Shown here: one piece after another, positions 19,494 through 59,713 of the stretch
Layout of the letters: each line of letters begins with the position of its first letter
Numbering within the stretch: position 1 is the first letter of the stretch
From: Squalus acanthias
Taxonomy: Eukaryota
Reading direction: 5' to 3'
Assembly (NCBI GenBank): GCA_030390025.1
Contig: CM059432.1
Location: forward strand, 12,090,001 to 12,154,000
DNA: 64,000 nt
The notes under the pieces: generated by a model
Seen by the model: only the letters and a program-made list of their open reading frames with translations
Database searches by the model: none
What the model was told of the DNA's origin: nothing
Program-made: the position numbers and the translations under genes

Positions 19494-20341
19494 GGCCAGA
19501 ATTTTGCCGGCGCTTAGGGGGCAGGTTTGGAGGCAGGACATCCGGCAAAATCGCAAAAATTGACAGCGGGTCAGAAACCCGCTGTCAACCCGCCTCCAAT
19601 CAATCTTCCCAAGTGTCGGGTCCCCAATTTGCAGCAGGCGGGAAGAGGATTATAGCCACTTAACTGCTTGTTAACAGGTTGTTATCAGGCAGTTAACAGG
19701 CTTTTTCCAATTTTGACACTTCTACTGCGGGCTTCCCGACGTCCGGACACCACGCCAGGTAAGTGTGGCGTGTTGTGAGTCTGCTGTAATGTTTCTGCAT
19801 TGATGACAGCTGCAGAAGTGGTGTGAAGGATCCAACGGCGCACTGGTGAGTTTCAGAGGTAAGAAAATGTTGGGAGATTCATTTTTAATGCATTTAGACT
19901 TTTCTGTAGGTAACAGGTTTTGAATTGTATGTGTAGTCCCACCTCATTGGGAGAACCTCTCTCACCAGTGACACATCGCTTCCGTAACCTCACTTGCAGC
20001 TGCCATCTGTTCTAGCCTAAGGAGGGAGTCACTGGAGAGTCTGGGTGCAAGAGCTCATGTTTGTACAGTGAATGTCAGTGTTTGCAGCACCTCAATGCTG
20101 TCAAACACTGAAAAATCAACTGTCAAAAAAAATTGTGCGTGGTCCCTTTAAGAAAACCGGCAGATGCCACGTCATCAAATTACCTCATCTGACACCGGCT
20201 TCCTCTTAATTGGCTGGAGGGTGGGCTTAACAAGGCCAATTGACATAAAATTACATTTGTGAGCCGGATGTAGTTGGGGCGGGACTGGAACCTGGAAGGC
20301 AGCTAACCCTCCCAAGCTGCCCGAAGCATAAAATTGCAGCC
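19494..20341. mobile_element. Harbinger-like MITE, second family (about 850 bp)
   Basis: Seen: GGCCAGAATTTT / AAAATTGCAGCC imperfect TIR, flanks CAT/TAT. Shares colinear internal blocks with 33666-34504. Confidence 0.65.
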
Positions 20342-24664: not shown

Positions 24665-26735
24665 TTACCGCACGAAAGAAGGCCGTTCGGCCTGTCGAGC
24701 CCGTGCCGACTCTCAGCTAGTCCCACTCCCCCGCCCTTTCCCCGTAGCCCTGCAAATTGCTTTCCTTCAGATACTTATCCAACTCCCTTTTGAAAGATAA
24801 GATTGAGGCTGCCTCCACCACCCTTTCAGGCAGAGCATTCCAGATCTTAACCACTCGCTGCGTAAAAAAGTATTTTTAATGTCGCCTTTGGTTCATTTGC
24901 AATGAAACTGGAAATTAGATTGCAACACCGTCAGCTGAACAGAACTGAAAGCTGGTTGTGTGGGTGGGGTGGGCTGGTGGGTGTTTGTAAATAGATATTG
25001 GGCCAAAAATTGATGCCGCTACGCGAGAGGTTTAGCTGTTATTTTGGGGGTGTGTAAGATTCATAGCTTTCACAGCACGTATGTGAAACTTATGAATGGA
25101 AGATGGTGTGCTGCCATTGGCTCTAACTGAGTCATGTGATCCCACAGCTCGCACGAATTCACTACGCCGGTGGGATACGCAAGCACTGCCCAGCTGATGT
25201 CTAGAACATCAAGTTCGTGCGAGCTAGATCTGAAAAAGCCAACGCGGAGTGAGAGATCGCGCCTGCTCCTTACCCCCGCGGGAACAGAGCGAGATCAATT
25301 TCTGGGCCATTAGTTGCCTTTTCCCTCTGCCTTTATCTCTGTAAATAGTGAAAGGTTTTGATAGAGTGGATACAGAGAGAGTGTTTCCACTTGTGGGGAA
25401 GAGCATAACTAGAGGCCATCAATATAAGATAGTCACCAAGAAACCAAATTAGGGAATTCAGAAGAAACTTCTTTACCCAGAGAGTGGTGAGAATGTGGAA
25501 CTCGCTACCACAGGGAGTGGTTGAAGCGAATAGTATAGATGCATTTAAGGGGAGGCTGGATAAGCATATGAGGGAGAAGGGAATAGAGGGTTATACTGAT
25601 AGAGTGAGATGAGGAAAGACGGGAGGAGGCTCGAGTTGTGCATAAACGCCGGCGTGGCCTGGTTGGGCCGAATGGCCTGTTTCTGTGCCGTATATCCTAT
25701 GTAAGTGGAAGTGCTTCACAGATCTAACAGCAGGGCCGAGAGCAGCGTTGTATCGCTGCAATCCACTGCAGATTAAATTCTGCTAACTGCCTAGTGATTC
25801 CATCACATCGAATCCTTCAGTGACCCTTGGGTTTCCAGCTCCTGATCCCTTGTCAAAATGTTTCTGTGTAGCTTTAAGCGTTATCCTACATGGTGTCAAA
25901 AACTAAATACAGTATAAAAAGCATGGCCATACAGTGAGGGTGGTGGTATTTTGCTTGCATCTAGTGGCGCTGTCATGCATAATAGTGATCCACACGCAAA
26001 GTCGGTTGTCAATTTATACCTGATTGGTTTAAATATCATATTCATAAAACAACAACACATCACACCTATGAATGATCAAATAGAATCATAGAATGATACA
26101 GCACAGAAGGAGGCCATTCAGCCCATCGTGCCTGTGAAAGCGCTCTCCAAATAGTCCCATTCCCCTGCCCTTTCCTCACCCCTTCAAGCATTTATCCAAT
26201 TCCCTTTTGAAAGTTACTATTGAATCTGCTTCCACCGCCCTTTCAGGCAGTGCCTCCCAGATCATGACAACTCGCTGCGTAAAAAAAAAAATCTCAGATC
26301 ACCTCTGGTTCTTTTGCCAATTACCTTAAATCAGTGTCCTCTGGTTTTCGACCCTTCTGCCACTGGAAACAGTTTCTCCTTATTTACTCTGTCAAGACCC
26401 TTCATGATTTTGAACACCTCTATTAACTCTCCCCTTAACCTTCTCTGCTCTAAGGAGAACAAACCCAGTTTCTCGAGTCTCCCCACATAACTGAAGTCCC
26501 GCATCCTTGGTACCATTTTAGTAAATCTCATAGAATTATAGAAATTTACAGCACAGAAGGAGGTCATTCGGCCCCTCTTGTCTGTGCCAGCCGACCAAGA
26601 GCTATCCACCACCCTTTCAGGCAGTGCATTCCAGATCGTAACAACTCACTGCGTAAAAAAAAACCTCCTCAGCTCACCTCTGGTTCTCCTCTGCACCCTC
26701 TCCAAGGCCTTGACATCCTTCCTGAAGTGTGGTGT
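24665..26735. mobile_element. Cluster of short CR1 3' fragments (24665-24900 minus, 25345-25703 plus, 26080-26735 minus and nested)
   Basis: Seen: FFTQRVV..WN.LP remnants and CR1 tails. Confidence 0.8.
25000..25308. mobile_element. Short Harbinger-like MITE (309 bp)
   Basis: Seen: 15-bp TIR GGGCCAAAAATTGAT / ATCAATTTCTGGGCC (2 mismatches) with exact 3-bp TSD ATT. Confidence 0.7.
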
Positions 26736-42701: not shown

Positions 42702-44183
42702 AAAAAATGACTTTCATTTCTATGGTGCTTTTCACGCCCTCAGGGCAGCGCAAAGCTCTTTACAGCCAATGAAGTACTTTTTGAAGTGCAGTCACTGTTG
42801 TAATGTAGAAAACACGGCAGCCAATTTGCGCACAGCAAGCTCCCACAAACCAACGATAATGGCCAGATAATCTGCTTTAGTGATGATTGAGGGATAAGTA
42901 TTGGCTAGGACACCGGGGATAACTCTTCAAAATAGTACTGTGGGATAAGAACATAAGAAATTGGAGCAGGAGTAGGCCATAATGCCCCTTCAGCCTGCTC
43001 CGCCATTCAGTAAGATCATGGCTGATCATAGACCTCAACTCCACTTTCCCGCCCTGATCTCCATATCCCTTGATTCTCCTGGAGTCCAAACATCTATCAA
43101 TCTCAGCCTTGAATATACTCAAAGATTCAGCATTCACAGCCCTCTGGGGCAGAGAATTTCAAAGATTCACAACCCTCTGAGTGAAGAAATTCCTCCTCAT
43201 TTCTGTCTTAAATGGCCTACCCCTTATCCTGAGACTATGCCCCCTAGTTCTAGACACTCCAGCCAGAGGAAAAAACTCTCCGCATCTACCCTGTCAATCC
43301 CCTTCAGAATCTTGTATGTTTCAATGAGATCACTGCTCATTCTTCTAAACTCCAGACAGTATAGGCCCAATCTACTCAATCTCTAATCATAGGACAGCCC
43401 TCTCATCCCAGGAATCAATTTAGTGAACCTTCGTTTCACCGCCTCCAAGGCAAGTATATTCTTCCTTAGATAAGGAGACCAAAACTGTGCACAGTACTCC
43501 AGGTGTGGTCTCACCAAGGCCCTGTACAATTGTAGCAAAACTTCCTTACTCTTGTACTCCAACCCCCTTGCAATAAAGGCCAACATGCCATTTGCCTTCC
43601 TTATTGCTTGCTGTTCCTGCATGCTAGCTTTCTGTGTTTCTTGCACAAGGACACCCAAATCTCTCTGAACACCAACATTTAATAGTTTCTCACCATTTAA
43701 ATAAAATTCAGTTTTTCTGTTCTTCCTACCAAAGTAAATAACACCACATTTCCCTACATTATACTCCATCTGCCACCTTACTGCCCACTCACTTAGTCTA
43801 TCTATATCCCTTTGCAGACTCTTTGGGGGAAAAATTAGGTCGCGCCCCATTTGGGGCGCAAATATCGTCTGGACGCAAATATTAGCGCCTGGCGCTAATT
43901 ATCGCCACTGACTGGAAACTTCACTTTTACCGCCCCGGGAGGTGAGTGGAGCGCTAAATCAGGTGCTGCACACCTGTCTTAAGGCGCAAAGGCCGAGCAG
44001 TGAGGCGCTAACTCAGCGCGCGAGCGCAGCACAGCTGCTGCCAGTTAGCGAGGGAACACAGACACACTGGCGCCGGCCACTTCTTAAAGCGGGGGGGTCC
44101 AACTTGCTCCCCAGCCACACCCTGCTCATTGCAGCCTTGAATCTCGGCCTGGAGAGACCTGTGAATCCATTTTGCTGCCAAGG

Positions 44184-46003
44184 ATGGAGAGGGAGAGAGA
44201 ACGAGCTCATCGCTTCACCGAGCGGGCCTTGGATGCTCTGGTTGGCGCGGTGGAGCGCAGAAGATGTATACTCTTCCCTGAGAGTGGCAGGAGGCCTTTG
44301 CCACGCGAGTTCAGAAGAGTGTGGAGGGAGGTGGCTCAGAGCGTCTCCTCCAGGAGCATGGTGCCCAGGACCCATACTCAATGCCGCAAAAAGTTCAACG
44401 ACCTCACTCGGGTCGTCAGGGTGAGTGGCTTTTTCTCAATACCTCTCCATCCCTCCATCTCAACCTCACTCTATGGCCAGAGGGTCTTAAAACCCCAATG
44501 CACAACACTCATCCAACACCTATGGCCCTTTCATGAAACACACACACACATTCCACACTTTGCATACAGTAAGGGCTATTCACCTATGGGAGGCACATCA
44601 GGCAAGACCATGGCTGCATACAGTAAGGGCTATTCACCTATGGGAGGCACATCAGGCAAGACCATGGCTGTATATTTACTCAGATGCTGTCCTTTTTCTT
44701 GCAGGCCAAGCTGGCGCATAATCGGAGACAGCAGCAACGGACAGGTGGAGGGCGGCCTCAGCTGCAACCCCTCAGCGATCTTGAGGAGCGCGTCCACAGG
44801 ATTGTGGCAAGCCGGGTGATCGGTCCCGTCGCCACTGGAGACGCCGACCCCGTTCTGGACAGCAATGGTAAGGTCATCACCTTTTTGTCCTCTGTCCTTC
44901 CACTTGTCCCTCACAACACCAGCCTTTGACACTTTCAATCCAACTTGCTAACTCGCTGCACTTATTCCTCCCTTACTGCCACCCTGTCCTCACGCTAAAG
45001 CCACTCTTGTACCTCCCTGCTTTCAGATGGTGATTCACCAGCTGAGGAGACGGGCCCTGAAGCTGCCACTGGGAGTGAAGCTGCAGCCGAGGAGGAAGAG
45101 GAAGCCGGAGCATCAGTGCCACCCTCTCCCGAGGAAGCCCATGCCCACACTGGGAACACGCCTTCCCTGGAGGGGAGCAGGGGGGAAGGGTCTGATGAGG
45201 GTGAAGCTCCAGGACCCAGCGGGCTGCAGCAACGCCATGGGGGTAGGGAAGAACGGGGGCCTTCTCCCCAGAGGGAGAGTATGCCAGACACTCCTACTGC
45301 AATGGACGCAGAGGAGGAGCGGCTGATCGCAGAAATGAACACCCAGGCGGTGGGCATGCACACTGAGCTCATGGGTGCAGTGGGAAGGGTGCCCGAATGC
45401 ATTGAGTCACTGGCAAGGAGTGTGGAGCACTTCGCTGTAGCACAGGCGGATGCCACACTAACGCTTAGTGCTGCAATTCAGTCACTGGCTGCCGTGATCC
45501 CATCTCTGACTGCTCTCATGCAGACTCAGATTGAGGCCACGCGAGCACAGACTGCTGCCAACCTCGATGGTTCGTTCACATGTCCCCGGGGCTGTCACCG
45601 CGCCGCAGCAGGCCAGCAATCTGTTCTCCAGCAGATTGCTCCGGATACTGAAGTGCTGCCCCGTGGGAGTGCCAGTGTGTCGGGCGAGCAGGGAGTTGCT
45701 GTCCTCTCTCACGATGACAGCATTCCTGCTGCCAACACTGTCACTTCTCCACTGCACTTGCCACCGCCTGTAGGACAGACTGCTGCTGCCCATGCAGAGT
45801 TGGTGCAGTCTGCAGCCGGGCCCTCCAGGCCCAGAACTGGTCAAGGCCGTCCTTCAGGGGCATCTGCAGTGTCAGGGTCTGACGAGCAGCAGCCTTCCAC
45901 CAGCCTTGCTGCAGCCACTGAGGTCCCATTACGGAGGAGCAGTAGGGTTAGAAGGGGGGAAGTGCGCAAGGGAAGGAGATCACCCTCGAAGGGCAAAAAG
46001 TAG
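44184..46003 (+). CDS. Harbinger Myb/SANT-like DNA-binding protein (NAIF1/MSANTD-like), 3 exons: 44184-44420, 44705-44867, 45027-46003; 458 aa
   Basis: Seen: ATG 44184; donors GTGAGT (44421) and GTAAGG (44868); acceptors ..TTTTTCTTGCAG (44704) and ..CTGCTTTCAG (45026); phases 0 and 1 give an open 1377-nt CDS ending in TAG. Known: RFTERALDALV..WREVA..RTHTQCRKKFNDL plus a downstream TGGG motif match Harbinger Myb-like partners. Confidence 0.88.
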
Positions 46004-46313
46004 GAGGTGTGACAAAATGCTGGTCATTTTTTTATTAAAGGTCGAGGTTCGTGGTCCAACTTTTGTTTAGTGTTTTGGACATTATCTCCAGGTTGTGAGA
46101 ACCAGTTATGTTATTGACTTTTTTTGTGTTTATTTCTATGAGTTTGTCATGAGGAATTGACACACACAGAGTTTGTAAAATAAATAAGTTTCTGTATTCA
46201 AAATATACATGGTTGGTGGTTGGAATTATTGGTGCCTTGGCCGGCTTAGGGGTTGCGTGCTGGGTTCATTGATGTTGTTAGCAATGGCAGAAGCCATTTC
46301 CACAGCAGGGGCC

Positions 46314-47472
46314 CTAGAAGCGGCTTGCTATCAGCCGTTGACGGACGGCCCTTGCAGTTTGACCATTGTGGGCCGCCCTCCCGCCTTGGTGCTGCTGATG
46401 ATCATCCTCCTCGTCCTCTTCCTCCTCTTCCTCCTCCTCCTCTGGTGGTGCTCCAAGGCCTGGTGGCATTGGCTGGGTCCTGAGGATTGCCATGTTATGC
46501 AACATGCAGCACACAACTACGAAGTTGGATACTCGCTCAGGCGAGTACTGCAGGGCTCCTCCAGAATGGTCGAGACAGCGGAACCGTTGCTTCAGCACGC
46601 CGATTGTGCGCTCAATTATGTTCCTGGTAGCTTGATGGCTCTCATTGTACCGCAGCTCAGCAGGGGTGTTGGGCGTACGGAGCGGTGTCATCAGCCAGGT
46701 GCTCAATGCATACCCCTTGTCCCCGAGAAGCCAACCAACTGGCTGATGCGGTGCCTCAAAGTTCTCCCACAGTAGTCTGGCGCAGGATAAAAGCATCGTG
46801 GCAGCTGCCAGGATAGTGGGCATTGACAGCGAGTATCAGCTGTCTGTGGTCACAGACCAACTGAACATTCAAGGAATGGAACCCCTTTCTGTTCCGGAAT
46901 TCCTCGGCATTCTCATGTGGAGCACGCAAAGCCACATGCGTGCAGTCAATGGCGCCCTGCACCATGGGGAAGCCCGCTATCCTCGCAAAGCCCAGAGCGC
47001 GGTCACGCTGCTTGTCTGGGGTCATGGGGAAAGAGATGAACTCTCGTCTCCTTTTAAAGAGGGCATTTGTGACCTGCCGGATGCAGCAATGCACCGCGAA
47101 CTGGGAGATATTGGCGAGGTCCCCAGCAGCAGCTTGAAATGAGCCAGTAGCGTAGAAGTTGAGAGCCACTGTGACCTTCACTGCCACCGACAGAGACGTT
47201 CTGGACCTCAGTTGAGGCTGCAGATCTGGCTGCAGCAGGTGGCAGAGCTCAGTGACCACCTCCTTGCTGAATCGCAGCCTTCGCAAACACAGCTCCTCAG
47301 ACATATGAATGTAGGAGAGATGTTCACGATATACCCTGGGAGGGTAAGCTCTCCTGTACATACGCCTGTTGGCCCTCCTCCGTCTGGCCATCATTGCCAC
47401 TCTCTCTCTGCGTCTCTGTGTCCTCCGATTCAGCTGGAGCAGGACGACGCCCCCAATCAGTGCAGCCCCCAT
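46314..47472 (-). pseudogene. Harbinger (HARBI1-like, DDE_Tnp_4) transposase with a single frameshift near 46765-46775
   Basis: Seen: ATG at 47472; two overlapping ORFs give [52 protein letters not shown], then [39 protein letters not shown]. Known: catalytic D-D-E motifs of Harbinger transposases. Confidence 0.93.
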
Positions 47473-48059
47473 AGTCTCTTTGCAAGCAAAGTAATGAAGG
47501 ACAGCAACCAAAGTAGCAGCGAAGTTATGATCAGTAGGCAAAACTACCTCACAAAGTGTTGAGTCAATGCAGAAGTCTCTCTTTCTCTCTCTCCGAATCT
47601 CTCTCTCTCTCTCAGAACGAGTGGTGCGAAAATGTCCACCACAGAAAAAGACAGGAAGAGGCCCCCTTTAAATAGCGCCCCCCCCCCCCAGCCCCACAGC
47701 GATTGATAGTGTTCCAGTCTTCCGGTCGTTGGATGCGCCAGGCGGTAAGGCAGGGGGCGCCACTCAATTTCCACTCCGGGGCGCCACAAGGGCGTTGCAC
47801 CATGGAATGACGTCACAATCTGCGCGCGCAGGTGGTCGCAGCGGTAAGGTTTAGCGCCGCCGCACAATCTCTAGTTAAGTTCCCGAGCGGCGCAAACATC
47901 GCTGCGCCCGGGCGTTAGCGGCTTTGCGCCCCATTAGCGCCCTCTTAAGGCGCTAACGGGAGGCGCAACCAACTGAATTTTTACCCCTTTGTGTTCTCCT
48001 CACTGATTACTGTCCCACCTAGCTTTGTATTGTCAGCAAACTTGGATACATTACACTTG

Positions 48060-48795
48060 GGGGAAAAAATTGAATTGCGCCCCTTTTGGGGCGCTAACTT
48101 CGCCGGGGCGCTAAAAGTAGCGCCCCGAAAAAATTAGCACCCCTGCGGCCGAAATTCACCGGTAGCGCCCCAAGAGGGAAGCAGGGTGCTACTGGAAGCA
48201 CCCTGCCACCCTCTTGGGGCGCTGCGAGTGAATTTCACAGTGGCGCTGCGGCACATCACACCGCGGTACTGCAGGCCTTCCTCTCCTTAAAGGGGAGGGG
48301 CCTTGCGCAGCGCGACCTGGGGCCCAGCTGGGCCACCAGGGATCGGAGTGCCGGCAAAAGAGCCTGGCACTCAAGAGAAGTGTCGGGCTCACGGAGCGCA
48401 GCCGGCACTCCGCGGGCGGGGCTTCAGAGGAGGCCGGGGACGGCAGAGGGGGCAGGTGCTGGCAGGTGGCCAGCAACAAAAATGGCCGCCTGACATCTTC
48501 CCTTTAATTAGTACCGCCCCGACCGCAGGTAGGCCCCTCTGACCCCGTCGGACATAGCCCGGTGGTAAGTCAGGGGGCGCTACCGAAGATCGTGGCTGGG
48601 GTGTGAGCGGGGCGCTGCGCACGGCGATGACGTCATCGTTGGCGGCGGGGCGCTAACAGTTACCGCCGCCGCTAACCTCCCGCTGAATTTCGCGGGAGGT
48701 GTTGGTGGCACCGCGCCCAGGCGCTAGTTGCTTTGCGTCCTGTTAGCGCCCTCTTAGGGCGCTAACAAGGCCCAAAGCAACCGAATTTTTAGGCC
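48060..48795 (+). mobile_element. Non-autonomous Harbinger MITE (736 bp), subfamily N1
   Basis: Seen: termini GGGGAAAAAATT / AATTTTTAGGCC, TSD TTG, subterminal sequences similar to both ends of 43825-47987. Inserted in the same CR1 copy 72 bp from the large element. Confidence 0.88.
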
Positions 48796-50520
48796 TTGGT
48801 CCCTTCATCTAGGTCATTAATATAGATTGTAAATAGCTGAGGCCCCAGCACTGATCCTTGCGGCACCCCACTAGTTACAGCCTGCCAACCTGAAAAAGAC
48901 CTATTTATCCCTACTCTCTGTTTTCTGTTCGTTAACCAATCCTCTATCCATGCTACTATATTACCCCCAACCCCATGAGCCCTTATCTTGTGTAATAACC
49001 TTTTATTTGGCACCTTATCGAATGCCTTTTGGAAATCCAAATATACTACATCCACTGGTTCCCCTTTATCTACCCTGCTAGTTACATCCACAAAAAACTC
49101 TAATAAATTTGTCAAACACGATTTCCCTTTCATAAAACCATGTTGACTCTGCTTAATCATGTTATGATTTTCTAAGTGCCCTGATACCACTTCTCTAAGT
49201 TTGCAGACGACACAAAGCTGGGTGGGCATGTGTGCTGTGAGGAGGATGCAGAGAAACTCCAGTATGATTTGGACAGATTGGGTGATTGGGCAGATGCATG
49301 GCAGATGCAGTATAATGTGGATAAACGCGAGGTAAGCATGCAGGTGCAGCAGGCGGTTAAGAAGGCAAATGGTATGTTGGCCTTCATAGCGAGAGGATTC
49401 GAGTATAGGAGCAAGGATGTCTTGCTGCAGTTGTACAAGGCCTTGGTGAGACCACACCTTGAGTACTGTGTGCAGTTTTGGTCACCTTATCTGAGGAAGG
49501 ATGTTCTTGCCATGGAGGGAGTGCAGTGAAGATTTACCAGACTGATACCTGGGATGGCAAGAATGACGTATGAAGAGAGATTGGGTCGATTAGGCTTATA
49601 TTCGCTAGAGTTTAGAAGAATGAGAGGGGATCTCATTGAAACTTATAAAATTTTAACAGGACTAGACAGACTTGATGCAGGAAGGATGTTCCCGACACTC
49701 ATCATTATGAAAGGGTATTAAGGGTTATGGAACCCAAGGCGAAGGTTGTGGGTTCAAGTCCCACTCCAGAGACTTGAGCACAAATATCTAGGCTGACACT
49801 CCAGTGCAGTACTGAGGGAGTGCTGCACTGTCGGAGGTGCCGTCTTTCGGATGAGATGTTAAACCGAAGCTCTGTCTGCTCTCTCAGGTGGACAGAAAGG
49901 ATCCCATGGCACTATTTCAAAGAAGAGCAGGGGAGATATCCCTGGTGTCCTGCCCAATATTTATCCCTCAGTCCCAATATCAGAAAAAACAGATTATCTG
50001 GTCATTATCACATTGCTGTTTGTGGGAGCTTGTGTGCAAATTGGCTGCCACGTTTCCTAAATTACAACAACGACCACACATCATAAGTACTTCATTGGCT
50101 GTGAAGTGCTTTGGGATGTCCTGAGGTTGTGAAAGGCGCTTATAAAGGCTTTGTCAGGGGGAGATCATGTCTAACCAATTTGATTGAATTTTTCGAGGGG
50201 GTGACTAGGTGTGTGGATGAGGGTAGTGCAGTTGATGTTGTCTACATGGACTTCAGTAAGGCTTTTGACAAAGTCCCACATGGGAGACTGGTCAAGAAGG
50301 TAAGAGCCCATGGGATCCAGGGCAATTTGGCACATTGGATCCAAAATTGGCTTAGTGGCAGGAGGCAGAGGGTGATGGTCGAACGTTGTTTTTGTGACTG
50401 GAAGCCTGTGTCCAGTGATGTACTGCAGGGATTGGTGCTGGGTCCTTTGCTGTTTGTAGTGTACATTAATGATTTAGATATGAATGTAGGAGGTATGATC
50501 AGTAAGTTCGCAGATGACAC

Positions 50521-54276: not shown

Positions 54277-57200
54277 ATAGAAACATAGAAACATAGAAGA
54301 TAGGAGCAGGAGTAGGCCATTCGGCCCCTCGAGCCTGCTCCGCCATTCGATGAGATCATGGCTGATCATCTAAACTCACTACCCTGTACCTGCCTTCTCC
54401 CCATATCCCTTAGCTTTAAGAAATATATCTAACTCAACCTTGAATATATTTAATGACTTCGCCTCAACTACCTTCTGTGGTAGAGAATTCCACAGGTTCA
54501 CCACTCTCTGGGTGAAGAAATTCTTCCTCATTTCTGTCCTAAATGGTTTACCCGTTATCCGTAGATTATGACCCCTGGTTCTGGACTCTCCGACCATCGG
54601 GAACATTCTTCCTGCATCTAGTTTGTCCAGACCTGTCAGAATTTTATATGTTTCGATGAGATCCCCTCTCATTCTTCTATACTCCAGCGAGTATAAGCCC
54701 AATCGACCCAATCTCTCCTCATATGTCATTCCTGCCATCCCAGGTATCAGCCTTGTGAATCTTTGCTGAACTCCTTCCATGGCAAGAACATCCTTCCTCA
54801 GATAAGGCGACCAAAACTGCACACAGTACTCAAGGTGTGGTCTCACCAAGGCCCTGTACAACTGCAGCAGGACGTCCCTGCTCCTATACTCAAACCTTTT
54901 CGCTATGAAGGCCAACATACCATTTGCCTTCTTCACCGCCTGCTGCACCTGCATGCTTACTTTCAGCGACTGGTGCACAAGGACACCCAGGTCTTGTTGC
55001 ACTTCCCCTTCTCCTAATCTATTGCCATTCAGATAATAGTCTGCCTTTCTGTTTTTGACACCAAAGTGGATAACCTCGCACTTATCCACATTATATTGCA
55101 TCTGCCACGCTTCTGCCCACTCACCCAACCTGTCCAGATCATCCTGGAGTTTCTCGGTATCCTCCTCGCAGCACACACTCCCACCCAGCTTTGTGTCATC
55201 CGCAAACTTGGAGATATTACATTTAATTCCCTTATCTAGATCATTAATGTATATTGTGAATAGCTGGGGTCCAAGGACCGATCCCTGCGGTACCCCACTA
55301 GTCACTGCTTGCCACTCGGAAAAAGACCCATTAATTCCTACTCTCTGCTTTCTGTCCGCCAACCAGTTCTCTATCCAAGTCAATACCTTGCCCCCAATCC
55401 CATGTGCCTTAACTTTACCCGCTAATCTCTTATGCGGGACCTTATCGAAAGCCTTTTGAAAGTCCAAATACACCACATCCACTGGTTCTCCCTTATCTAT
55501 TTTCCCAGTTACATCCTCAAAAAATTCCAGTAGATTAGTCAAGCACGATTTACCTTTTGTAAATCCATGTTGACTTTGTCCGATCCTGTCACTGTTTTTC
55601 AAATGCTCAGCTATTACATCCTTTATAATGGACTCTAGCATTTTCCCCACTACCGATGTCGGGCTTACCGGTCTGTAATTCCCCGCTTTCTCTCTACCAC
55701 CCTTTTTGAATAGTGGGGTAACATTAGCTAGCCTCCAATCCATGGGTACAGTTCCAGATTCCATCGAATGTTGGAAGATGATCAGCAATGCATCTACTAT
55801 TTCTAGGGCCACTTCCTTAAGTACCCTAGGATGTAGATTATCAGGCTCTGGGGATTTATCGGCCTTCAATACCATCAATTTCCCTAATACCATTTCCCTG
55901 CAAATACTGATTTCTTTCAGTTCCTGCCTTTCATCAGACCGTATGTTCTCCAACATCTCTGGGAGGTTATTTGTGTCCTCCTTTCTGAAGACAGAACCAA
56001 AATATGCATTTAATTGGGCTGCCATTTCTTTGTTCCCCATTATAACTTCCCCCGCTTCTGACTGCAAGGGACCTACACTTGATTTCACTAATCTTTTTCT
56101 CTTCACATATCTATAAAAGCTCTTACAGTCAGTTTTTATGTTCCCAGAAAGCTTACTTTCATATTCTATTTTCCCCTTCTTAATTAATCCCTTTGTCCTC
56201 CTTTGTTGAATCCTAAACTGCTCCCAATCCTCAGGGCTACCGCTTTTTCTGGCCAATTTATATGCCTTCTCCTTGGATCTTATGCTATCCCTAATTTCCC
56301 TTGTTAGCCACGGTTGAGTCACCCTTTTTGTTTTATTCTTATGCCACACTGGGATGAACAAATTCTGTAGTTCATCCATGCAGTCTTTGAATGTTTGCCA
56401 TTGCCTATCCACAGTCAACCCCTTGAGTGACATTTCCCAATCAATCCTACCCAATTCGCGCCTCATACCATCGTAGTTTCCTTTATTTAAATTCAGGACC
56501 CTAGTCTCTGATTCAACTACTTCACTCTCCATCCTAATGAAGAATTCTATCATATTATGATCACTCTGACCCAAGGGGCCTCGTACTACAAGATTGCTAA
56601 TTAATCCTTTCTCGTTACATAATACCCAGTCTAAGATGGCCTGATCTCTGGTTGGTTCCTCGACATATTGTTCCAGAAAACCATCTCGTAAACATTCTAG
56701 GAATTCCTCCTCCACAGTATTTTTACTAATTTGGTTAGCCCAATCTATATGTAAATTAAAGTCACCCATGATGACTGCTGTGCCCTTACTGCATGCTTCT
56801 CTAATTTCCTTTTAATGCCGTCCCCAACCTCCGTATTACTGTTTGGAGGTCTATATACCACTCCCACTAACGTTTTCTGCCCCTTGTTATTTCTCAGTTC
56901 TACCCATACAGATTCCGCATCATCAGAGCTAATATCCTTCCTTTCAATTGTGTTAATCCCCTCTTTAACCAGCAATGCTACCCCACCTCCCTTTCTTTTT
57001 TGCCTATCTTTCCTAAATATTGAATAACGCTGGATGTTGAGTTCCCAGCCTTGACCACCCTGGAGCCATGTTTCTGTAATCCCAATCAAATCGTATTAAT
57101 TTACCTCTGTTTGCGCAGCTAATTCATCCACCTTGTTCCGAATGCTCCTTGCATTAAGACACAAAGGGGGAAAAATTCAGCTGCTTGCGCCTCCCGTTAG

Positions 57201-57969
57201 CGCCTTAAGAGGGCGCTAATGGGGCGTAAAGCAGCTAACGCCCGGGCGCAGCGCCGCCCACGCCTCCCGAAAAATTCAGCGGGAGGTTAGCGGCGGCGGC
57301 AGCCGGTAGCGCCCTGTGGCGCTGCGCCGCCGGCGATGACGTCATCACCGTGCGCAGCACCCCGCTCGCGCCCCGGCCGTGATCTTCAGTCGCGCCCCCT
57401 GATTTACCGCCAGACGCTATGTCCGACGGGTTCAGGGAGGCGTACGTGCGGCCGGGGCGGCGATATTTAAAGGGGAGGTGGCAGGCGGCCATTTTTGTTG
57501 CTGGCCGCCTGCCAGCACCTGCCCCCGTTGCTGTCCCCGGCCCCCGTGAAGCCCCCCCACCGTGAAGTGCCGGCTGCGCTCCAAGAGCCCGGCACTTCTC
57601 TTGAGTGCCGGGCTCTTTTGCTGGCACTCCCGATCCCTGGGGGCCCAGCTGGGCCCCGGTTCGCGCTGCGCAGGGTCCCTCCCGTTTAAGAAGGGGAGGA
57701 AGGCCTGCAATACCGCGGCGCGACGTGCCGCAGCGCGTGGCGCTGCGGCACGTAGCGCCAGGATATTCCCTCGCAGCGCCCCAAGAGGGATGCGGGGTGC
57801 TTCCAGTGGCGTCCCGCTTCCCTCTTGGGGCGCAACCACTGAAGTTCCGGCGCGGGGCCGCTAATTTTTTCGGGGCGCTAAAAGTCGCGCCCCGGCGAGG
57901 TTAACGCCCCAAATGGGGCGCGACTCAATTTTTACCCCAAAGCCTTCAGGCTTGTTTTTTTAACGCTTT
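54277..57969 (-). mobile_element. Young CR1 with nearly intact ORF2 (796-aa ORF 54379-56769, one frameshift near 56810), interrupted by a MITE
   Basis: Seen: EN and RT motifs; CAGGAC duplication at 54271-54276 and 57970-57975. Confidence 0.95.
57166..57938 (-). mobile_element. Non-autonomous Harbinger MITE (773 bp), subfamily N1, inverted
   Basis: Seen: termini GGGGGAAAAATT / AATTTTTACCCC, TSD AAA, interrupts a CR1 endonuclease region. Interior is the diverged reverse complement of 48060-48795. Confidence 0.92.
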
Positions 57970-58821: not shown

Positions 58822-59713
58822 GGGGGAAAAATTCAGTTGGTTGCGCCTCCCGTTAGCGCCTTAAGAGGGCGCTAATGGGGCGCAAAGCAACTAGCGCCCG
58901 GGTGCGGCGATGTTTGCGCTGCTCGCGAAATTAACTAGACATTTTGCGGCGGCGCTAAACACTACCACCACGATCTCCTGCGCCGGCAGATCGTGACGTC
59001 AGTCGAGTGCGCAACACCCCGGTAGCGCCCCGGAGCGGATATTGAGTGGTGCCCCCTGCCTTACCGCCTGCCGCCAGCAACGACAGGTTGAGGGAAGCGT
59101 TTTGCAGTCAGGAAGGGACTGGGGGAGCGCTATTTAAAGGCGACCGCGTCCTGCCTTTTTTTGTTGGTGACATTTTTGAACCACGCATTCTGAGAGAGAG
59201 CGAGAGAGACTTCTGGAGAGATTCAACACTGTGTTAAGAGTTTTGGGTACTGAGCAGCACTTTGCAGTTTCATTTTGATTTGCCCTTCCTTGTATCGATT
59301 TAGAAGAGACTGTGGGGGCTGCACTCTGAGCTCTTTCCCTGGTACTCTCCATTGTTCTTTCCAGCAGATTTGATGTAAAGGTCTCTCCAGGCCGAGATTC
59401 AAGGCTGCAATGAGCAGGATGTGGATGGAAAGCAAGATCAACCCTCCCCTTTAAGAACTGGCCCGCGCCATTGTGTGTGTGTTCCATTGCTGACTGACAT
59501 CACATGAGCTTCGCCAGGGCTCTGAGGTAGCGCCTCGCTCCTCGGCCTTTGCGCCTTAAGACAGGTGTGAAGCGCCTGAATTAGCGCTCCAATCACCTCC
59601 AGGGGCGATAAAAGTCAAGTTTGCAGTCGGTGGCGATAATTAGCGCCAGGTGCTAATCTTTGCGCCCGGCCGATAATTGCGCCCCAAATGGGGCGATACT
59701 GAATTTCTCCCCC
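58822..59713 (-). mobile_element. Internally deleted derivative of the two-gene Harbinger (892 bp)
   Basis: Seen: termini GGGGGAAAAATT / AATTTCTCCCCC, flanks TAT/TAA. Left part resembles the reverse complement of about 47520-47987 and right part that of about 43825-44190 (e.g. GGTCTCTCCAGGCCGAGATTCAAGGCTGCAATGAGCAGG). Both ORFs are absent. Confidence 0.88.

Follow-up and report, generated by a model that had tools for sequence, protein, structure and literature searches.

A 64,000-nucleotide stretch of the Squalus acanthias genome (GenBank assembly GCA_030390025.1, contig CM059432.1, positions 12,090,001 to 12,154,000 of the forward strand; hereafter the window, in whose coordinates all features are given) contains, at 43825-47987 on the plus strand, a full-length two-gene Harbinger element of 4163 bp. 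We refer to this element as E1, and its extent is given by its own ends and by empty sites in copies of the CR1-like long interspersed nuclear element (LINE) that hosts it. E1 carries an open Myb-like gene and a transposase gene with one small break, and this copy accordingly does not hold two intact open reading frames (ORFs). We consider it probable that the frameshift arose in this copy or in a small sub-lineage, and that E1 is non-autonomous and belongs to a shark family of very high abundance. An earlier note, made from the letters of the window alone, had described E1 as a nearly intact two-component transposon of a recently active family, one frameshift away from a complete system.

Extent of E1 and Its Host LINE

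The two terminal inverted repeats (TIRs) of E1, each of 12 bp (left, 43825-43836, plus strand; right, 47976-47987, minus strand), agree at 11 of 12 bases, start exactly at 43825 and 47987, and are bordered on either side by the target-site duplication (TSD) TTT (43822-43824 and 47988-47990); with the ends fixed, the chance of this arrangement is about 3e-8. E1 sits within a CR1-like LINE (43383-49481, minus strand), where it disrupts the reverse-transcriptase frame, which matches the RVT_1 profile. The same frame is split a second time by E2 (48060-48795, plus strand, 736 bp, TSD TTG), a non-autonomous element with related ends located 72 bp beyond E1. Removal of E1 and E2, together with one of the two 3-bp copies at each, lets the host frame read through. 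The LINE restored in this way aligns without gaps to the three other CR1 copies of the window that match it best (74-81% identity over 296-315 bp), while three weaker LINE matches that span the two sites show 2-12 gap letters. Empty sites are also found in public sequencing runs, whose contigs or reads were aligned to the window and which are designated here by codes (X1, X8, X13, X21 and others). Contig joints at E1 skip 4166 bases, that is 4163 + 3 (four contigs in X1, one in X8 and one in X13), and joints at E2 skip 739 bases, that is 736 + 3 (nine contigs in X1 and one in X13), which fixes the boundaries of both elements and the 3-bp duplication. The contigs with such joints are most likely paralogous LINE copies, and not excisions at this locus. 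As a separate observation, the two Harbinger insertions sit 72 bp apart in a single LINE copy, whose reverse-transcriptase sequence holds two good target sites there.

The Two Genes of E1

The transposase gene (46314-47472, minus strand) is intronless, comprises about 386 codons, and is convergent with the Myb-like gene. Its product matches DDE_Tnp_4 in two consecutive pieces (profile positions 1-65 and 69-158), with all three catalytic residues present (D176, D252, and E288, numbered with an X at the break). The frameshift and the premature stop lie at 46756-46766 (minus strand), and homologue spacing makes a net loss of 2 nt around 46757-46766 the likeliest cause: the anchor-to-anchor distance across the break is 76 nt in the window, as against 26 codons in 62 of 91 homologues (25 codons in 14 of 91), so that the commonest spacing is 78 nt. 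Reading in the first frame ends at a stop codon after residue 238, and of the triad only the first catalytic D is retained.

The best protein matches of this transposase are shark and ray proteins that have been automatically named "putative nuclease HARBI1". In a midpoint-rooted FastTree phylogeny of 96 sequences (247 fetched proteins, filtered to lengths of 330-460 aa and joined by the window, gave 99, of which 3 were dropped for coverage), the E1 transposase nests with a support of 0.99 in a clade with 45 other members, 37 of them named and all of these sharks or rays, the remaining 8 being unnamed or without a name look-up. Teleost, amphibian, and sturgeon proteins fall outside this clade, in a tree that included no labelled Nuwa or Repbase transposases. 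The closest whole-protein identity is 66% (Pristiophorus), and identity over the core reaches 72% at most. Protein P0170, which was too short for the tree, is 38% identical to the E1 transposase and has a start like that of HARBI1 proper. The clade also includes shark and ray proteins named "putative nuclease HARBI1" that are conserved like host genes (P0019/P0028/P0070, P0004/P0005, and the P0124 cluster), with 89% between Pristis and Scyliorhinus, 79% between Mobula and Narcine, and one 90% cluster in five shark species; some of them have a broken triad. Judged by this conservation, they are candidates for extra domesticated Harbinger transposases of cartilaginous fish.

The Myb-like gene is modelled on the plus strand with three exons, the first containing the Myb/SANT domain (44184-44420), followed by a predicted exon 2 (44705-44867) and a predicted exon 3 with an acidic, low-complexity part and a basic C-terminal tail (45027-46003). 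The model is stop-free over 458 aa, with predicted GT..AG introns of 284 and 159 bp. Exon 1 matches Myb_DNA-bind_5 in a profile search (E 1.9e-9) and has one homologue among 174 candidates, the Narcine protein P0121 (48% identity over 82 aa), whose alignment continues over the exon 1/2 junction of the model. Only 1 of 2000 first-order simulations yielded an open frame of the length of exon 3, whose basic tail would be a plausible nuclear signal. A single-sequence fold of exon 1 gave three helices at a predicted local distance difference test score of 52.8, which is too weak and was not used. Loose contig ends near 45887-45920, in 118 and 78 contigs, point to subfamilies with another Myb tail. 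Intron 1 contains a perfect 54-bp tandem duplication (44561-44668, plus strand), each unit with a donor-like GTAAG, and the two convergent genes are separated by an AT-rich spacer (46004-46313) with AATAAA/ATTAAA hexamers on both strands.

Much of what the earlier note had said of E1 is borne out by these data: a two-gene PIF/Harbinger element with TIRs and a TSD, which the 11/12 repeats, the TTT, and the empty CR1 sites confirm; an open three-exon Myb/SANT model of 458 aa with canonical predicted introns; a transposase with every DDE motif and one small indel, placed there near 46770 and found at about 46757-46766; and a chondrichthyan family, in line with the 37 named clade members. The checks it had proposed against DDE_Tnp_4 and Myb_DNA-bind_5 gave matches to both profiles, and the copies free of the frameshift for which it had proposed to look do exist as in-frame forms, in one X8 and two X1 contigs.

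Abundance, Divergence, and Age of the Family

The family is very abundant and is found in near-identical form in at least seven coded organisms. For this estimate 23 runs were listed by their share of sampled element words, and four were aligned to the window. At least half of the sampled words are found in 18 of the 23 runs, representing seven organism labels and one unlabelled run, and the runs labelled B-G contain 0.57-0.67 of the words, equivalent to 1.2-1.8% divergence; the shares of X19 (0.08), X20 (0.05), and X23 (0.00) were not used as evidence. The runs X15 and X23, which have the same organism label and study, contain 0.59 vs 0.00 of the element words. In X1, 106,255 contig pieces match at 90% or more along the whole stretch (19,163 at 99+, 36,282 at 95-99, and 50,810 at 90-95%), with a depth that is level across both genes and about twofold at the element ends, as expected with many short derivatives. 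The ratio of summed to single-contig depth is about 20,000, a figure that is no copy number and supports "very abundant" only, and the 257 raw reads of X21 that match, every one of them partial and the majority within a CT microsatellite, likewise give no copy number.

Among 40 of the 260 differences between X1 and the window, 35 fall in the element; the majority form in X1 is represented by 18, and 9 exceed 80%. These counts set a floor of 0.22% for the divergence of E1 from the dominant forms. The long pieces displayed differ by 1.08% in X8 (18/1673) and 1.81% in X13 (40/2214). With the mutation rate reported for the epaulette shark, 7e-10 per base per generation (95% confidence interval 1.4-14.1e-10; PMC10587355), E1 would be about 3 to 26 million generations old, or 1.5 million at the fastest rate and the lowest divergence, and the confidence range as a whole gives about 1.5 to more than 100 million generations, a rough bound that uses a pedigree rate from another species; some of the distance probably reflects differences between subfamilies and not decay. 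We can say with fair confidence that E1 is young in sequence, and at shark mutation rates it is likely more than 1 million generations old; younger copies of the family may exist. The recent activity proposed in the earlier note is supported as youth in sequence (at least 0.22% and up to 1.1-1.8%); as recency in years it is not supported, the span being about 1.5 to more than 100 million generations. Its statement that an autonomous consensus could be rebuilt almost directly from this copy was too strong, because E1 has substitutions of its own, some of them non-synonymous, and diverged subfamilies exist.

Origin of the Frameshift

The case for a frameshift confined to this copy or to a small sub-lineage comes from other copies of the family. 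The sole X8 contig over the break and two X1 contigs carry two additional letters after 46757, so that the transposase halves are in frame in those copies; the X1 depth is 87,063 at 46757 vs about 571,000 in its bin, a dip that would be expected if most copies carry an indel difference there; and the window letter at 46766 is carried by about 384 of 230,736 depth in X1, which makes it a near-private local haplotype. The majority differences, among 40 of 260, are synonymous at four of five transposase sites, which suggests that the lineages kept a functional enzyme until late, and at two of six Myb sites. Several points weigh against this reading, or against the two-gene model on which it is built. 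The in-frame insertion accounts for only 408 of the 87,063 depth in X1, the X13 contig over the break does not have the two letters, six indel differences are hidden and the X1 counts are incomplete, and the synonymous tally comes from five sites among those 40 of 260 differences. As to the Myb-like gene, a search of 8000 candidates gave no homologue of exon 3, no splice joint for the model is seen among 15 displayed of 264 joints, and contigs of X8 and X13, runs guessed to be RNA, cross its splice sites unspliced, so that these contigs may be DNA. The rarity of the insertion and the X13 contig would also suit an old and shared frameshift, with E1 belonging to a transposase-dead subfamily whose amplification in trans was the work of a minority of intact copies. 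We regard this history as possible at a low level of probability, since it sits poorly with the depth dip, the rare letter at 46766, and the prevalence of synonymous transposase differences, and since another in-frame indel could be among the six that are hidden.

An assembly error, which would make E1 an intact autonomous element, might be suspected from a break that touches a 3-base run in an otherwise open gene and from the existence of in-frame contigs; yet the near-private substitution 9 bp away looks like a real local change, and the neighbouring LINE frame is open over at least 270 aa, so indel errors are infrequent here, and we find this explanation unlikely. The near-identity across at least seven coded organisms has been considered as well, as it could reflect horizontal spread of a young, active family instead of a burst before divergence. 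This proposal concerns family history and is compatible with a private frameshift; the 1.2-1.8% divergence of the runs B-G is about E1's own distance from the dominant forms, and a marine Harbinger transfer has been published (PMC8437027), but the transposase groups within shark and ray proteins and has no sister from outside them, and sharks mutate slowly, so that close relatives would share a consensus. With the organisms coded, and the absence from X21 uninformative given that the LINE flanks have no match there either, we judge horizontal spread to be rather improbable. Finally, the name "putative nuclease HARBI1" given to the homologues and the open Myb frame might suggest that the pair of genes is a domesticated HARBI1/NAIF1-like locus and not a mobile copy; the intact ends, the TSD, the insertion in a LINE, the empty sites, the very many copies, and the broken transposase all contradict this, as does the identity of 38% to the HARBI1-like P0170 vs up to 72% to shark transposase-like proteins, and we attach next to no weight to it. 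A frameshift private to this copy or to a small sub-lineage of an abundant family is the reading that we hold most probable.

Related Elements and Target Site

Besides E2, the window contains E3 (57166-57938, minus strand, TSD AAA), a non-autonomous element 81% identical to E2, and E4 (58822-59713, minus strand, TSD TAT/TAA), an internal-deletion relative of E1 with 76-83% identity. The common termini and subterminal palindromes of E1-E4 have a mean column identity of 83-85%. These palindromes, conserved in all four elements, lie in E1 within GGCGC-rich subterminal regions on the left (43837-44024) and on the right (47625-47975), both putative Myb-binding regions. Of the 32 occurrences of GGCGCTA in the window, 25 lie within E1-E4, and by analogy these are likely Myb sites. 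The ratio of observed to expected CpG is 0.85-1.0 at the element ends (43825-44044, 47628-47987, and E2-E4), vs 0.15-0.29 in the flanking LINE and 0.46 in the window, and this high CpG is kept even in the older E3 and E4.

All four insertions fall in AC[AT]C-NNN-G, a motif found at 0.38% of window positions. The target of zebrafish Harbinger3_DR is given as AAACACCWGGTCTTT (PMC3016246), and the E1-E4 sites match its flanks at 8, 8, 9, and 9 of 12 positions, a score of at least 8 being reached at 0.5% of 63,980 window positions; this is a small sample of four sites, two of them within one LINE copy. Flanking C and G are present at all four sites, around the duplicated cores TTT, TTG, AAA, and TAT/TAA. 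These cores do not follow TWA (TAA is seen on only one side of E4), none of the four is CWG, and a TNA core, as in the NuwaII target C|TNA|G, is likewise confined to one side of E4. We examined the idea of a novel target rule and discarded it, since the flanks agree with those of Harbinger3_DR and SENKUSHA1 is already listed with C|NNN|G.

Two further observations concern other sequences of this kind. A 309-bp miniature inverted-repeat transposable element, E5 (25000-25308), has other ends and an ATT duplication outside the target motif, scores 5/12 against the Harbinger3_DR flanks, and is probably a member of another Harbinger-type family. At 19511, on the minus strand, there is a terminus-like motif that resembles the ends of E5, for which no partner end was located.

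Proposed Mechanism

Harbinger3_DR and Ping/Pong are described as moving by a two-protein mechanism in which both proteins are needed (PMC2836001, PMC9392472). By analogy with these systems, the Myb protein of the E1 family would bind the GGCGC-rich subterminal palindromes, and would also bind the transposase and carry it into the nucleus; the DDE enzyme would then excise the element and insert it at a palindromic target of about 15 bp, AC[AT]C-NNN-G, with duplication of the central 3 bp. The same two proteins likely mobilised the shorter E2-E4. The E1 copy itself would yield a transposase of 238 aa that retains just the first catalytic D. Its own movement would require an intact transposase provided in trans, and it could contribute the Myb protein if expressed.

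A stronger version of this scheme, which we put forward as doubtful, is that the family keeps intact autonomous copies and transposes in living sharks: it would then provide a natural two-protein vertebrate transposase that recognises a palindromic target of about 15 bp by its flanks and accepts nearly any triplet at the centre, that is present in thousands of copies, and that may have spread among several shark or ray species. If the family does still transpose, sharks would harbour a site-selective transposon that is ready for use and that drives the expansion of their genomes. The combination of a relaxed TSD core with conserved flanks in any case lends itself to testing which target positions the proteins recognise.

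Comparison with Known Systems

Harbinger elements are already in print for sharks, and a claim to the first such element was accordingly rejected: the repeats reported for the whale shark include PIF-Harbinger (PMC8455134), and Tourist/Harbinger is given as the commonest type of DNA transposon in the grey reef shark (PMC12498223). Harbinger has been reported absent from the elephant shark, in a teleost survey that asked for tests in other cartilaginous fish (PMC9179366). A literature search, which lay outside Repbase and Dfam, where the family may be catalogued, found no description of it. E1 adds a full anatomy of an elasmobranch Harbinger, with its ends, both genes, derivatives, and target motif, where we otherwise found only a line in the repeat summaries (PMC8455134, PMC12498223). 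It represents no new mechanism, being of a known kind whose zebrafish relative has already been rebuilt, and the reconstructed zebrafish Harbinger is cited as transposing in human cells (cited in PMC3016246 and PMC2836001).

E1 has the features of the PIF/Harbinger superfamily in its broad sense (PHIS), namely a DDE_Tnp_4 transposase with a D-D-E triad (here frameshifted), a Myb/SANT gene, and TIRs with a 3-bp TSD, and it shares the extended target preference beyond the TSD, which is 15 bp in vertebrates, with all four sites at 8-9 of 12. Its TIR and second gene are of the NuwaI type (12-61 bp, starting GGG, with a Myb/SANT ORF2). By the TSD definitions given by Han et al. 2015 (TWA for PIF/Harbinger in the narrow sense, CWG for NuwaI, and C|TNA|G for NuwaII; PMC4482050), E1 is in the superfamily, falls outside TWA and CWG, and, taken strictly, probably belongs to none of the TSD-defined subgroups; the table for NuwaII includes a C|NNN|G member, SENKUSHA1.

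Harbinger3_DR of zebrafish, listed as NuwaI-2_DRer, a NuwaI element of 4204 bp with a 12-bp TIR (PMC4482050 Table S5), resembles E1 in length (4204 vs 4163 bp), in a 12-bp TIR starting with GGG, in the pairing of DDE_Tnp_4 with Myb_DNA-bind_5, in a 3-bp TSD, and in its extended palindromic flanks. It differs in its TSD core (CWG vs TTT/TTG/AAA/TAW in E1-E4) and, compared by description, in the size of both proteins, with a transposase of 343 vs about 386 aa and a Myb protein of 221 vs 458 aa; teleost transposases of 343 aa are about 39% identical to that of E1 and belong to another clade. SENKUSHA1 of fugu, listed as NuwaII_TRub with the target C|NNN|G (PMC4482050 Table S7), has the relaxed 3-bp core that fits all four elements here, but, compared by description, it has a 17-bp TIR, a length of 2224 bp, and no ORF2 listed. 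The "putative nuclease HARBI1" proteins of Pristiophorus japonicus and Heptranchias perlo are in the same clade as the E1 transposase (up to 66% whole, 72% core), whereas none of the shark and ray proteins under this name is near-identical to it, and these automatic annotations include many without part of the triad. HARBI1 and NAIF1, each of which goes back to one of the two Harbinger genes (PMC9392472), are single-copy host genes without TIRs and are not the lineage closest to E1. Harbinger-Snek of sea kraits (PMC8437027) resembles the E1 family in being a two-gene Harbinger of a vertebrate that has reached very high copy number and has non-autonomous derivatives; compared by description, the two differ in that a horizontal origin is argued for Harbinger-Snek, and none is shown for E1.

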